DNA of 64,000 nucleotides from positions 92,042 to 156,041 of the forward strand of contig SVQI01000002.1 of assembly GCA_015065455.1 (NCBI GenBank). Reading direction: 5' to 3'. Position 1 is the stretch's first letter. Each line of letters begins with the position of its first letter. Position numbers and translations under genes: made by a program. This document shows, one piece after another, positions 43,068 through 52,984 of this stretch. The notes below the pieces were generated by a model that had not been told where the DNA came from, made no database searches, and saw only the letters and a list, made by a program, of their open reading frames with translations. The stretch is from Oscillospiraceae bacterium (lineage in GTDB: Bacteria; Bacillota; Clostridia; Oscillospirales; CAG-272).

Positions 43068-43096
43068 TTGAAAAAATTTGTTTATTATGCTAAAAT
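43068..43096 (+). promoter_or_regulatory. candidate sigma-A promoter of the sipW/TasA-like operon
   Basis: TTGAAA (43068-43073), 17-nt spacer, TGcTAAAAT (extended -10). This leaves an about 130-nt leader. Confidence 0.55.
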
Positions 43097-43229
43097 AAAT
43101 AGTAAATATATTTTTCAGATCGTTTTTTGCATTTTTACGGAATTACGGATAGATAATGTCACCCGAAAATGACTGCTACGTTTAGAGTGCCATGCTTTTC
43201 GGTGCAATTATTTTTTTACAAGAAAGAGT

Positions 43230-43994
43230 GTGTTAACAGAAATGAAAAAGGCATTGAATATCACAAAAAACATTATAGTTTGGCTTATTGTTGCCATAGC
43301 CATTTTTATGGCTGTTTTTACAATTATTTCGGTTTCCACGTTCAACCGTAATGACCGCAGTATTTTCGGTTATAAGGCGTATATAGTCAATTCAGACTCT
43401 ATGGCAAAAACTGATTTTGACGCAGGAGATTTGATATTCGCAAAAGAGGTTGACCCGAGAACTTTAAAAGAGGGCGACATTATCACCTATATTTCTCAGA
43501 ACCCCGACAGTTTCGGAGAAACAATTACCCATAAAATCAGAAAAATCACAAAGGACGCTGAAGGCAATCCCGGATTTATTACGTACGGTACCACTACCGA
43601 TACAGACGACGAGGTTGTTGTTACATATCCCTATATCTTAGGTAAATACAAAAACAACATTCCAAAAATCGGCACTTTCTTTAATTTCTTAAAAACAACA
43701 CCCGGTTATTTTACTTGTATATTCATTCCCTTTATGATGTTAATTGTTTACCAAGGAATTAACTTTGTAAAGTTGTTCAGAAGATACAAAAAAGAACAAA
43801 TGGAAGAATTGCAGAGCGAACGAGATAAGCTCGAATCTGAAAGAGCAGAAAATGCAAAAATGTTAGCAGAACTTCAGGCTCTTAAAGCACAGTTTGCAGA
43901 AAAACAAACTGCAGAGGCTGTTCAAACAAACGTTGAACCAGCTGTTGTATCTGACAACACTATTGAAAACAAAGATTCATCAACCAGTAACTGA
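43230..43994 (+). CDS. sipW: signal peptidase I, SipW (archaeal/ER) type, with long C-terminal coiled-coil tail
   Basis: N-terminal TM helix, catalytic Ser context VNSDSMAKT, His context ITHKIRKI, second TM helix. An about 80-aa tail follows (EELQSERDKLESERAENAKMLAELQALKAQFAEKQ). Start is GTG 43230 or ATG 43242. Confidence 0.8.
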   Translation: MLTEMKKALNITKNIIVWLIVAIAIFMAVFTIISVSTFNRNDRSIFGYKAYIVNSDSMAKTDFDAGDLIFAKEVDPRTLKEGDIITYISQNPDSFGETITHKIRKITKDAEGNPGFITYGTTTDTDDEVVVTYPYILGKYKNNIPKIGTFFNFLKTTPGYFTCIFIPFMMLIVYQGINFVKLFRRYKKEQMEELQSERDKLESERAENAKMLAELQALKAQFAEKQTAEAVQTNVEPAVVSDNTIENKDSSTSN

Positions 43995-44020
43995 CACTTA
44001 AGGAGCAAATTGTTTCAACC

Positions 44021-44245
44021 ATGAACACCCCTAACTCAAACTACCCTGCTATAATCGCATTTATAGTGATTATCGTATTCCTTTTTTTGTTTGCGGTTTT
44101 CACAAGATGGTACTTAAATGAATTTTTGCCGGAACTGAGATATCTGAATAAGGAAATCCGTCGCACTGAAGGCAAAGAAAAATCAAAATGGAAACGCCGC
44201 AGAAAAAAACTTTTTCTTTCACTTATACCGTTTGTAAGATACTGA
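44021..44245 (+). CDS. small single-TM protein with basic tail
   Basis: 74 aa with RBS AAGGAG, one TM helix, and the tail KSKWKRRRKK. Confidence 0.5.
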   Translation: MNTPNSNYPAIIAFIVIIVFLFLFAVFTRWYLNEFLPELRYLNKEIRRTEGKEKSKWKRRRKKLFLSLIPFVRY

Positions 44246-44342
44246 ATTGACGTTTTGTATACCTATTTTGAGCAATTTACAGCAACCTAACAGTATAAAT
44301 ACAGATTTAAAACACTGAAGACTTTCAAGGAGAATTTACAAT

Positions 44343-50546: not shown

Positions 50547-50593
50547 TATTAATAAAACACGAGCTATTTTACGAAAGGAGGAATTATAAAAAT

Positions 50594-51682
50594 ATGAAAA
50601 ACTTCTATAATAAGTATTTTCGTACATCTGAACATCAAAAGATAAACGAAAAAGTCTTCTTGGTCCGTATGGCAACTGCCGTTGGAATAATTATAATTTG
50701 CCTTACAGCCATGGCATTTTCTGCCTACGCATATTTTTCAAGTGATATTTCCTCCAGTCATAACGTTATAAAGTCAGCAAATTTTAACCCTGTAGTTTCA
50801 ATTGCTCCGTCTGTTGCAAACAGTGCAAACGATGTTACCGTGGAGAGAGTTTCTTTTGATACTCATCAGGCAACTTTACAACCCAACGTAAAGTACACGG
50901 TTACTATAACTAAAAACGCAGATAGTTCAGCTAAAACCGGCTTCTGCATTATTACAGCTGAAAGATCTGATAAAAATTACCATACTCAGCAAATCGGTAT
51001 TGACGGAGACACAACAGTAAACGTAATTTCATTCACTTTGACTATTGATGCCACCTCAGCTACACAAGTAACCTTTAAATCAAACTGGGGAACATCTTCA
51101 TATTACGAAAATTATAAAATCTACGGTGATAATAATCCGTTATATATTATAGAAAATGACTCTGTAACAATTACTATTCCACCTCCGAGTTTTATGTCAG
51201 CGCCGTCAGTTCAAACTCCGGTTGATAAAACACCAACACAGACTACAAATAAACCTGCAGATACAACAACAGCTCCAACACCTGAAACTACAGTTCCTGA
51301 TACCACTACTTCGGACGACGTTCCAACAGATTCTCCCGAAACGACAGGAAACAGCACTCCTGAGACAACACAAGAACCTATTCAATCAACAACAGTTCCC
51401 TCTCCTGACACAACAGTCCCTGAGAGTACAACTTCCGATAGCACCGGAACTGAATCTCTTGAGACTACAGGTACTACAGAGTCTGAAACAACTAAGGAAC
51501 CTATTGACTCAACTACAGTGCCTACCCCTGAAACTACCCCCCCTGACACAACTACCTCGGGTAATGTTTCAACTGAATCTCCTGAAACAACCGGTAATAA
51601 TACTCCCGAAACTACAGGAGAACCGTCAACGTCAGACAATGAAACATCTCCGGAAAACACATCCACTCCTGAGTCTGATTAA
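50594..51682 (+). CDS. secreted or anchored protein with SipW-like signal and Thr/Pro/Glu-rich tandem-repeat C-terminus
   Basis: 362 aa with a long basic n-region, TM helix, then AFSAYAYFSSDISSSHN and an about 150-aa globular part. The C-terminus holds 3 x 41-aa T/P/E repeats. Confidence 0.65.
   Translation: MKNFYNKYFRTSEHQKINEKVFLVRMATAVGIIIICLTAMAFSAYAYFSSDISSSHNVIKSANFNPVVSIAPSVANSANDVTVERVSFDTHQATLQPNVKYTVTITKNADSSAKTGFCIITAERSDKNYHTQQIGIDGDTTVNVISFTLTIDATSATQVTFKSNWGTSSYYENYKIYGDNNPLYIIENDSVTITIPPPSFMSAPSVQTPVDKTPTQTTNKPADTTTAPTPETTVPDTTTSDDVPTDSPETTGNSTPETTQEPIQSTTVPSPDTTVPESTTSDSTGTESLETTGTTESETTKEPIDSTTVPTPETTPPDTTTSGNVSTESPETTGNNTPETTGEPSTSDNETSPENTSTPESD
51266..51634 (+). repeat. 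3 x 123-bp in-frame tandem repeat (Thr/Pro/Glu-rich)
   Basis: Units at 51266-51388, 51389-51511 and 51512-51634. They encode TT(A/V)P(T/S)P(E/D)TT.P(D/E).TTS.....(T/D)(E/D)S.ETTG....(P/S)ETT.EP..S. Confidence 0.85.
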
Positions 51683-51697
51683 TTTTATAATGATAAT

Positions 51698-51736
51698 AAA
51701 AACTCCTTCTTGTTAATAACACGAAGGAGTTTTTTA
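51698..51736. terminator. bidirectional intrinsic terminator closing the operon
   Basis: Hairpin AAAACTCCTTC/GAAGGAGTTTT with flanking A and T runs, between convergent genes. Confidence 0.85.
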
Positions 51737-51784
51737 CTTAACTGATTAAAAAAGTCATTTCATCTCAGTCGATATATTCTATTT

Positions 51785-52984
51785 TTAAATAGCAGATACC
51801 TTTAGATCCTTGCCTTTTATCATATATGCATTTAACACAAAGAAATAGAGTCCAAATATTAAAAGATTAAAAATTGATAAAACAGGCAATGCTATCGGAA
51901 CAATTCCAAAAAGGAATGATGCGTACGACAACAAGGTTACAACATGCAAAGCACAGCAAATCGGTATAGTCTTAGGGCGAAGTACTGCAAGACAAATTGC
52001 AAGTATCTCGTATATGTATGAATATCTTTCGTGCATTGCGGGTAAGAACAATACGCATAAGTACGTCAACAAAAACGCCATTATAAGTAAGTTTTCACCG
52101 TCAGTCGACAAACGTTTTTTTATCCAATACACCATCACAACCAAAAGAATTGCAACCGTCAAACATATAGACGTTGTCTTAAGATACGTATATTGGTATA
52201 CATCCATGGGCTTCAGAACTAACTGCCAAATTGACGGATAATTTAATGACATATACGGGTATACTTCCGTTTGCTCTGTGTAAATAGTAATAGTCTCCAA
52301 TGGATTTCTTCCGTAAAATGCAGTAGGTATTCCGCAAGCTATCATGGCTAACGGCACAAAAGCAAAATTAAATATTGTAAAACGCTTACGAACAAAGTAT
52401 ACAAAAAGGAATATCGGCAAAAGAAATACTGCCTGAAGCTTAAACGCAAATGATACACCCAGCATTATCATTGAAAGCGTGTACTTTTCCTTTAACAAAG
52501 CCGCTATTGCCAAAAATCCAAAAAAAGTAAAAATAGAGTCGCACTGCGCCCAGACGGAAGAATTCAAAACAACAACGGGTGATAAAATAACAACTCCCAT
52601 AACGGCAAGTGTTCCCCAACGGCGTCTGTCCTTTTCAAGAAGATTATACACGCAATATCCTGCCACAATTGCAAGAAGATAATCAAAAACACAAGACAAT
52701 ATCTTATATGAATATATAGCCTTTAAAGGAAGCTTGGTCATAATATATATAAGAAATTGATATACCAGATTATAGTTCCCTACCTGATGGCTAAGACCGC
52801 TTTCTTTAATTTCGTCAAACCAAGGAGAAAGATAGTGATAAAAATCACCGCTGACATACTCCATCGGCGGAATTCTTATCAAAACTCCTAGAACTAAAAC
52901 AAGCGTGGAAACGATCCAAAATAAATTCTTTTCAATATATTTCAGTAAATTCTTCTCCCATTTAAATATACCAAATTCGCCCAT
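51785..52984 (-). CDS. polytopic membrane protein, GT-C-like glycosyltransferase candidate
   Basis: About 400 aa with about 11 TM helices. The first loop reads IRIPPMEYVSGDFYHYLSPWFDEIKESG, a layout like Dol-P/undecaprenyl-P-sugar transferases. Start taken at ATG 52984 (RBS AAAGGGG) rather than 53032. Confidence 0.4.
   Translation of the reverse strand: MGEFGIFKWEKNLLKYIEKNLFWIVSTLVLVLGVLIRIPPMEYVSGDFYHYLSPWFDEIKESGLSHQVGNYNLVYQFLIYIMTKLPLKAIYSYKILSCVFDYLLAIVAGYCVYNLLEKDRRRWGTLAVMGVVILSPVVVLNSSVWAQCDSIFTFFGFLAIAALLKEKYTLSMIMLGVSFAFKLQAVFLLPIFLFVYFVRKRFTIFNFAFVPLAMIACGIPTAFYGRNPLETITIYTEQTEVYPYMSLNYPSIWQLVLKPMDVYQYTYLKTTSICLTVAILLVVMVYWIKKRLSTDGENLLIMAFLLTYLCVLFLPAMHERYSYIYEILAICLAVLRPKTIPICCALHVVTLLSYASFLFGIVPIALPVLSIFNLLIFGLYFFVLNAYMIKGKDLKVSAI

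Follow-up and report, generated by a model that had tools for sequence, protein, structure and literature searches.

A 64,000-nucleotide stretch of DNA from an Oscillospiraceae bacterium (contig SVQI01000002.1; hereafter the window) carries a nine-gene operon whose probable product is a pilus-like fibre, anchored to the cell wall and belonging to the TasA/BsaA superfamily. The operon encodes, in this order, a SipW-type signal peptidase (SipW1), a small membrane protein (tm74), a second SipW-type peptidase (SipW2), and six secreted proteins termed S1, S2, S3, anchor, S4 and S5. Systems of this kind, namely multi-paralogue TasA/BsaA/AbpX loci with anchors and tips, are already known, and it is the enlarged, conserved version described here that is new.

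Exactly five of the 76 open reading frames (ORFs) of at least 100 residues in the window, namely S1 to S5, have in their first 60 residues a hydrophobic run with xA[WY][FY] after it. Against TIGR04088 (cutoff 19 bits), S1 (29.7 bits) and S2 (28.7 bits) scored above the cutoff, S3 just under it (18.0 bits) and S4 lower (10.0 bits, with its orthologues at 14-18 bits), and S5 gave no match. Family profiles were built from orthologues drawn from 65 genome loci (cited below by L number and local coordinates), and comparison by hhalign linked the S2 N-domain with S4 (99.9%), S1 with S3 (99.4%), S1 with S4 (97.9%), S1 with the S2 N-domain (90%) and the anchor with S1 (87%); the link between S5 and the S2 N-domain (91%) was limited to the signal region. 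At the level of sequence profiles, S1, the S2 N-domain, S3 and S4 are mutually homologous, predicted TasA/BsaA-like domains. With the TasA/camelysin family PF12389 (gathering score 22.5), S1, S2 and S3 of the window scored 19.4, 21.0 and 17.5, mostly over the N-terminal part, and matches were obtained for 31 of the 37 S1 family members (E 0.01 or better), five of the 27 S4 family members, and S2 orthologues at 23.3-27 bits, over the gathering score. The BsaA model TIGR04090 (cutoff 60 bits) gave 20.7 bits for S1 and 22.8 bits for S3, and Clostridium homologues that bridge to both reached 36-57 bits. The AlphaFold2 model of S1 (predicted local distance difference test score, pLDDT, 83) was matched best by the TasA fibre 8aur in a Foldseek search of the PDB (E 4e-4, template-modelling (TM) score 0.25), and the anchor model (pLDDT 73) by the archaeal bundling pilin AbpA 7ueg (E 7e-4, prob 1.0, TM 0.35/0.41), with TasA 5of2 at rank 4.

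A set of three residues relates S1 and S3 to a known polymer. In BsaA of Clostridium perfringens, the signal peptide (residues 1-27) is followed by a donor strand (residues 28-38) whose V33 and F37 are buried in the acceptor subunit, and N35 is bonded to K74 with E56 as the catalytic residue, mutation of any one of the three abolishing oligomers (PMC11580942). S1 shows V/A-x-N-x-F and the 21-residue Asn-to-Glu spacing at an offset of +2 (N37/E58 vs N35/E56), K83 corresponding to K74; N37, F39, E58 and K83 were invariant in 37 homologues and at least 90% conserved in 47. The N39/E52/K75 residues of S3 fell at aligned positions and were at least 90% conserved in 29 sequences, and among 13 BsaA-like relatives the triad Asn and Lys were invariant and the Glu nearly so. 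By alignment, S1 and S3 hold a BsaA-type Asn-Glu-Lys triad at BsaA-equivalent positions, from which an isopeptide bond is predicted. The triad Lys and Glu were absent from S2, S4 and the anchor. S4 had its own invariant positions (LAWF, N46, LYEPGY and ANYR in 27 sequences), and S3 was the most conserved substrate, with orthologue E-values down to ~1e-100 and its gene always lying immediately 5' of the anchor gene (median gap 8 nt).

The cluster recurred in the order sipW1-(tm74)-sipW2-S1-(S2)n-S3-anchor-S4-S5 in ~45 species-level genomes, all of them metagenome-assembled genomes (MAGs), with ~16 contigs spanning it completely. The carriers were mostly Oscillospiraceae, Acutalibacteraceae, Faecousia and unclassified Clostridia, by their records mostly from ruminant gut, with one labelled HGM. 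The S3-anchor-S4 block was strictly syntenic in 26-28 species, with gaps of 8-16 nt. More distant Clostridia, including C. collagenovorans DSM 3089, Soleaferrea (S. massiliensis AP7), Lacrimispora, Agathobacter and Angelakisella, carried a minimal core of a SipW gene, one or two genes for BsaA-like subunits and an anchor gene. No regulator or other neighbour gene was conserved in more than seven related loci. At five loci a same-strand ORF of ~280 aa lay upstream of the cluster (e.g. L011:5945-6787), its N-terminus resembling a tyrosine recombinase by eye.

The anchor ends in PPQTGN-NFNLIFWSSITICSAGMILILLFW-RKKEQK, i.e., an LPXTG-like motif with Pro instead of Leu at position 1, a transmembrane segment and a positively charged tail. 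This sorting signal was kept as PxTGD/TGD plus a transmembrane segment and a K/R tail in nearly all 28 orthologues (T184, G185 and D186 at least 90% conserved), and two of the 29 family members matched PF00746. The anchor had 3881 matching 90%-identity clusters in public data, and one homologue was named by NCBI 'LPXTG cell wall anchor domain-containing protein'. A sortase gene stood directly 3' of the anchor homologue in L058 (7609-8478), and in L055 (6565-7902) the anchor homologue carried SLH domains (125 bits) in place of the sorting signal. SipW-sortase fusions, with an N-terminal SipW-type peptidase (PF10502/PF00717) and a C-terminal sortase domain (PF04203, 37-42 bits), were observed at L061:10560-11780 and L069:10654-11934, in Agathobacter and Lachnospiraceae MAGs, directly 3' of a gene for a TasA-like subunit. 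The sortase gene of L058, the SLH domains of L055 and these fusions tie the anchor class to wall anchoring and SipW to sortase. A phmmer search of the related loci with an approximate Staphylococcus aureus SrtA sequence as query found nothing, and when motif-scan candidates were passed through Pfam, sortases emerged in three distant loci only. A sortase-polymerised pilus was ruled out on account of the single sorting signal and the absence of a sortase from the conserved cluster.

Both peptidases exceeded the curated TIGR02228 cutoff (51.85 bits), SipW1 with 67.9 and SipW2 with 106.3 bits, and fell short of the Bacillus SipW equivalog NF046067 (cutoff 190 bits) at 76.2 and 100.1 bits, respectively; judged by these scores, they are of the same type as Bacillus SipW and not its orthologues. 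When 40 SipW1-type and 47 SipW2-type proteins were aligned together, Ser, His and Asp (S57/H101/D127 in SipW1 and S44/H84/D107 in SipW2) were at least 95% conserved, and SipW2 matched human SEC11A (7p2p) with an E-value of 9e-9, including the SGSMEP, HR and GDxNxxxD motifs. Both peptidases are assigned by these residues to the S26B endoplasmic reticulum (ER)/archaeal Ser/His type, not the Ser/Lys P-type. The SipW1 family differed by a conserved Thr in place of the first Asp of the GDxN box and by its length (230-309 aa vs 162-246 aa for SipW2), and the tail of SipW1 beyond the second membrane segment (~80 residues) gave only weak, sub-threshold matches to coiled-coil families. The tm74 protein had no Pfam or NCBIfam match, and its orthologues lay directly 3' of sipW1 in 14 related loci. 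At several loci an S2 gene was placed between the two peptidase genes (sipW1-S2-sipW2-S1...), and this adjacency hints at a division of labour, with the S2/S4 class possibly handled by SipW1 and the S1/S3 class by SipW2.

The S2 protein of the window contains nine xTLTVNGGxF copies, mostly ~25-35 residues apart, and Tandem Repeats Finder detected no DNA-level repeats in S2 or S5. Related loci encoded zero to five S2-type proteins each, in which the TasA-like N-domain was constant and the C-terminal modules differed. Modules in orthologues included Beta_helix (48 bits) and BspA LRR (78 bits), a Hint match being weak and sub-threshold (22.3 bits vs a cutoff of 29.7), and the C-terminal module of the window S2 was shuffled among loci, reappearing at other positions in other S2 proteins. 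The tail of S5 comprises 167 aa with 31% Thr and 16% Pro (Thr, Ser and Pro together 60%). The signal motif AYAxFS was kept in 17 S5 orthologues, whose tails were mostly of low complexity, with three ending in LysM (44-48 bits; L032:15077-15862, L041:16550-17551 and L017:6823-7662). With the TapA model TIGR04087 (equivalog cutoff 80 bits), the N-terminus of S5 and two orthologues scored 13-16 bits, with E 0.009-0.05 and an alignment confined to the signal region. The LysM domains of three orthologues make a wall-associated S5, like TapA, more likely than one at the fibre tip.

The nine genes lie on the forward strand (43230-51682) with spacers of 26, 97, 88, 42, 116, 13, 14 and 47 nt in gene order (Table 1). 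An earlier note, made from the letters of this DNA alone, had described a same-strand operon with gaps of 13-116 nt, and all nine ORFs were present at the positions it gave. Its further claims of two sipW-like peptidases, a sortase-signal protein, a giant repeat-domain fusion and a Thr/Pro stalk are borne out by the above data on SipW1 and SipW2, the anchor, S2 and S5. Three of its statements stood in part: the five SipW-signal substrates agree with the motif, whereas TIGR04088 passes only S1 and S2; the GGAGG-like ribosome-binding site said to precede every gene was found as (A)GGAG(G) for eight of the nine, that of sipW1 being weaker and consisting of just AGAAAGAG; and the region was drawn to 52984, which overlaps a convergent gene (51785-53032, reverse strand) beyond the end of the operon itself. 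For sipW1, the JGI gene call places the start at an ATG at 43242 (250 aa).

Table 1. Coordinates of the operon genes and associated elements within the window.
Feature	Position	Strand	Description
Two-hairpin RNA element, leader before sipW1	42895-42982	+	Covariance model R1 56.4 bits, E 2.8e-11
Candidate sigma-70-type promoter	43068-43096	+	TTGAAA-17-TAAAAT, extended TG, 10/12 consensus positions
sipW1 (SipW1)	43230-43994	+	ER/archaeal-type signal peptidase I; C-terminal cytoplasmic coiled-coil-like tail, ~80 aa
tm74	44021-44245	+	74-aa single-pass membrane protein, basic tail
sipW2 (SipW2)	44343-44879	+	ER/archaeal-type signal peptidase I
S1	44968-45645	+	BsaA-like subunit, SipW-type signal, Asn37-Glu58-Lys83 triad; predicted shaft
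S2	45688-48498	+	TasA-like N-terminal domain (~residues 1-200) plus variable beta-helix-like adhesin module
Two-hairpin RNA element, S2-S3 gap	48501-48591	+	Covariance model R1 78.4 bits, E 8e-17
S3	48615-49184	+	BsaA-like subunit, Asn39-Glu52-Lys75 triad; proposed adaptor
anchor	49198-49878	+	TasA/AbpA-like domain, ordinary Sec signal, C-terminal sortase sorting signal
S4	49893-50546	+	TasA-type minor subunit without triad
S5	50594-51682	+	Secreted; AYAYFS signal motif, small beta-rich domain, Thr/Pro/Ser-rich tail
Intrinsic terminator at operon end	51698-51734	+	Hairpin -17.1 kcal/mol, z -6.1, then U run

In the fibre that we propose, the SipW paralogues (SipW1 perhaps on the S2/S4 class and SipW2 on the S1/S3 class) would cleave after (T/S)(L/F)A following Sec export (in S1, after A27 by prediction), freeing an N-terminal strand (W/Y-F/Y-x-D...N-x-F) that would enter the beta-sandwich of a neighbouring subunit by donor-strand exchange. 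Within S1 and S3, an isopeptide bond whose formation is catalysed by Glu would then lock the donor Asn to the acceptor Lys, as happens in BsaA of C. perfringens. S1 is the presumed shaft because its gene is the first after sipW2 and its product is BsaA-like and triad-bearing, and S3 the presumed adaptor because it is the most conserved substrate and always encoded immediately 5' of the anchor gene. The TasA-like N-domain of S2-type proteins would be their way into the fibre, on which they would display the variable adhesin module; the anchor subunit would be incorporated by strand complementation and linked covalently to peptidoglycan by a sortase encoded elsewhere, and S5, wall-associated, would assist or nucleate fibre formation much as TapA does. 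The idea of the earlier note, a heteropolymer with anchor, shaft and tip, is supported overall, with the qualifications that it is not new and that S5 is more likely wall-associated than a tip; the TasA-like fold it had expected agrees with the best matches of the S1 and anchor models, which are TasA-superfamily filaments, though at low TM-scores.

Several results weigh against this proposal. The TM-scores of the Foldseek matches are low (0.25-0.41), the window proteins themselves lie under the PF12389 and TIGR04090 cutoffs, and searches of the PDB with the family profiles of S1, S4 and the anchor returned no TasA chain at E-values up to 10. Profile comparison with the TasA sequence (the query being 100% identical to 8aur_A) reached an hhalign probability of just 0.3-41%, and we therefore make no claim of direct TasA homology by sequence. 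The anchor lacks the triad Lys and Glu, with a conserved Gln (Q65) at the Lys position; the S5 N-domain had neither a fold nor a family match; none of the annotated genes in the contig stretches looked up had a Sortase Pfam domain; and the need for two peptidases has no explanation so far. The S5 family profile found no informative PDB chain, phmmer with S1 against the PDB gave chance matches only, and the likeness of the window proteins to the TasA sequence was confined to a PGD...EN.G motif. Given the low TM-scores and the PDB profile searches without TasA, we place the link to the superfamily through the BsaA branch; membership by that route is well supported and remote from TasA proper.

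The same data bear on other explanations. The operon might make a released biofilm-matrix scaffold, as TasA and BsaA do in pellicles, with the anchor and S2 as independent proteins that share only the secretion route. The C. perfringens BsaA polymer is indeed mostly extracellular, its polymerisation needs neither BsaB/BsaC nor SrtB, and BsaB stayed out of BsaA oligomers; the anchor of the present operon is without the Lys and Glu of the triad. However, the S3-anchor-S4 block is strictly syntenic across 26-28 species, the body of the anchor is itself TasA/AbpA-like, the anchoring devices are interchangeable (LPXTG-like or SLH) with SipW-sortase fusions in related loci, and the AlphaFold 3 (AF3) models of the AbpX preprint show the fibril subunit and an LPXTG protein together in donor-strand oligomers; we consider this scaffold unlikely. 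It is much less probable that the products are monomeric SipW-dependent surface adhesins or enzymes that form no fibre, which is the old 'camelysin' view. PF12389 is named as a metalloprotease family, the beta-helix modules of the S2 proteins are adhesin- or enzyme-like, and the S5 domain is unrelated to TasA, but the protease annotation of CalY is regarded as a likely misidentification, S1 retains the donor-strand motif along with a triad in the positions equivalent to those of BsaA, and TasA, BsaA and AbpA all make donor-strand filaments. We give still less credence to a spore-associated appendage or coat structure, which is brought to mind by the first description of TasA as the spore coat-associated protein CotN (the 5of1 entry names it 'Spore coat-associated protein N'), by a host that is a spore former, and by spoVAD, yabP, yqfD and spoIID on the contig; the sorting signal and the LysM or SLH domains target vegetative-type peptidoglycan, the sole promoter candidate is sigma-70-like, and no sporulation gene was linked to the cluster in other species.

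Two intergenic segments of the window share a two-hairpin RNA element (Table 1). The 116-nt S2-S3 gap folds at -48.3 kcal/mol (z -7.2), and in the leader copy the inverted repeat at 42934-42975 has the core TCAAAGGNTATAAG in common with the internal copy. Across loci, the gaps following S2 genes were strongly structured (median z -6 to -7.4), and the S1-to-S2 gaps were not (median z -1.7). The element consists of a variable 9-bp P1 followed by GGCGGCAAUCAAAGGGCAYAA as the 5' arm of a 19-bp P2. In 32 aligned copies, 94.6% of cells pair and compensatory changes were present in 20 of the 28 pairs, compared with 11.0 ± 1.6 in shuffles (none of 500 as high) and 5-13 in slid controls, and the many G-U pairs indicate that the element is an RNA on the coding strand. 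The covariance model detected 62 strong sense-strand copies from 34 sources, all in two-peptidase-type clusters with up to five per operon (e.g. L014:12649-12733, L031:3649-3754 and L044:16538-16625), and at least 43 of the 62 stood directly 3' of an S2-type gene. The element had no Rfam match, and a metagenome scan with its 15-mer core returned mostly chance matches. Its candidate roles are termination, processing, stabilisation and antitermination; the first bases, GGCGGYA, resemble the RfaH ops site, a lead only. Its position 3' of adhesin genes offers a separate lead for operon-internal regulation.

Known systems share much of this architecture. SipW-dependent BsaA polymers were described in C. 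perfringens by Obana et al. (PMC7395162), and the isopeptide lock of BsaA was reported together with the observation that BsaA/TasA paralogues frequently share an operon with LPxTG proteins, sortases and signal peptidases, with heteropolymers being suggested (PMC11580942). The C. perfringens sipW-bsaA-bsaB-bsaC operon resembles ours in having a dedicated SipW-type peptidase gene followed by TasA-like paralogues, in the donor strand with V-x-N-x-F directly after the signal and the matching triad (N35/E56/K74 vs N37/E58/K83 of S1), and in the LPXTG motif that a bsaB-like gene encodes in other strains. By comparison, the operon here encodes a pair of peptidase paralogues and a small membrane protein, has the triad in two subunits (S1 and S3), and adds S2 fusions of a TasA domain with an adhesin, the minor subunit S4 and the Thr/Pro or LysM protein S5, whereas a vWA protein (BsaC) and a two-component system are missing and S1 and S3 score far under the TIGR04090 cutoff. 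In the Bacillus loci (B. subtilis tapA-sipW-tasA and B. cereus sipW-tasA-calY), an ER-type SipW likewise processes the fibre subunits, jelly-roll subunits polymerise by donor-strand exchange, and TapA, to which the S5 N-terminus has a faint match (TIGR04087), nucleates or anchors by strand complementation; unlike here, these loci have one peptidase with two or three substrates and lack a sortase-anchored subunit, an isopeptide triad and adhesin fusions.

The AbpX loci of archaea and bacteria, for which minor subunits, tip proteins, LPXTG or SLH anchors and AF3 donor-strand models have been described (10.64898/2026.01.04.697558), and AbpA (PMC9245690) are similar in their TIGR02228 peptidase, major and minor subunits and predicted tip proteins. 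Bacterial AbpX loci further have LPXTG or SLH anchors and sortases, the anchor is part of the donor-strand oligomers in the AF3 models, and AbpA 7ueg is the closest structure to the anchor model here. In contrast, AbpX-linked peptidases are described with ten transmembrane helices and a DUF5305 accessory protein, where our operon encodes two ordinary peptidases with two transmembrane segments and a 74-aa protein, and AbpX loci are often linked to cyclic di-GMP (c-di-GMP) or two-component regulators, none of which is conserved beside the cluster here. As an analogy only, chaperone-usher and sortase-assembled Gram-positive pili have the logic of shaft, adaptor and adhesin in common with the proposed fibre, the former also sharing donor-strand complementation and the latter isopeptide bonds and a sortase-anchored base, but no chaperone, usher, class C pilus sortase, pilin motif or E-box was found here, and since one protein only has a sorting signal, the polymer cannot be sortase-built. 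Our literature search found no paper on the Oscillospirales cluster, none on SipW-sortase fusions or on SipW paralogues in pairs, and no experimental study of the architecture; the survey of synteny across Clostridia that the earlier note had suggested gave the recurrent order in ~45 MAGs and the minimal core elsewhere.

As to the surroundings of the operon, the 670-nt gap on its 5' side contains one good sigma-70-like site (43068-43096), which is a candidate only, as the total of such sites in the region was no higher than the shuffled expectation. The sipW2-S1 gap (44880-44967, forward strand) showed a moderate fold (-20.7 kcal/mol, z -2.4; median z -3.6 for this gap type across loci) and could be a processing or stabilising site 5' of the major subunit gene. 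The window matched a 65-kb JGI metagenome contig (sample 3300018427). The identical SipW2 protein was encoded on at least 24 contigs, and most neighbour genes were also the same on 23 of these; among genomes, the closest match was an Oscillospiraceae MAG whose S1 is 73% identical. The presence of spoVAD, yabP, yqfD and spoIID indicates a spore-forming Firmicute as the host. An Rfam scan of 42000-54200 returned a tRNA as its sole match and no c-di-GMP or other riboswitch; this tRNA-Ser (GCT) at 53544-53634 (reverse strand) was called by both Rfam and ARAGORN. The convergent gene at 51785-53032 encodes a 415-aa GT87-like (GT-C type) membrane glycosyltransferase and adjoins the gene for the Thr/Pro-rich S5. 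O-glycosylation of the S5 stalk by this enzyme is possible but unsupported, and its membership in the system was dropped because no homologue occurred near the cluster in any fetched related locus.

It is chiefly as the biofilm matrix of Bacillus and C. perfringens that TasA-type fibres are known; the present cluster occurs in dozens of uncultured species. We would tentatively go further, on a reading that we hold to be rather less probable than the anchored fibre itself, and see in it a widespread and distinct class of Gram-positive surface pilus of gut Oscillospirales, in which an S1/S3 shaft would be built by donor-strand exchange with an isopeptide lock on a sortase-linked TasA-like base, interchangeable S2 adhesin cassettes would be governed by the hitherto undescribed two-hairpin RNA 3' of each cassette, and each of two ER-type peptidases would release one subunit class. 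The cluster raises the questions of whether a donor-strand fibre can be a heteropolymer anchored by sortase, why some loci need two dedicated peptidases, and whether the 'exchange and lock' of BsaA is general. If the operon does make an anchored adhesive fibre, this would be a main organelle of attachment, equipped with variable adhesin modules, in a gut group that is abundant and poorly understood.

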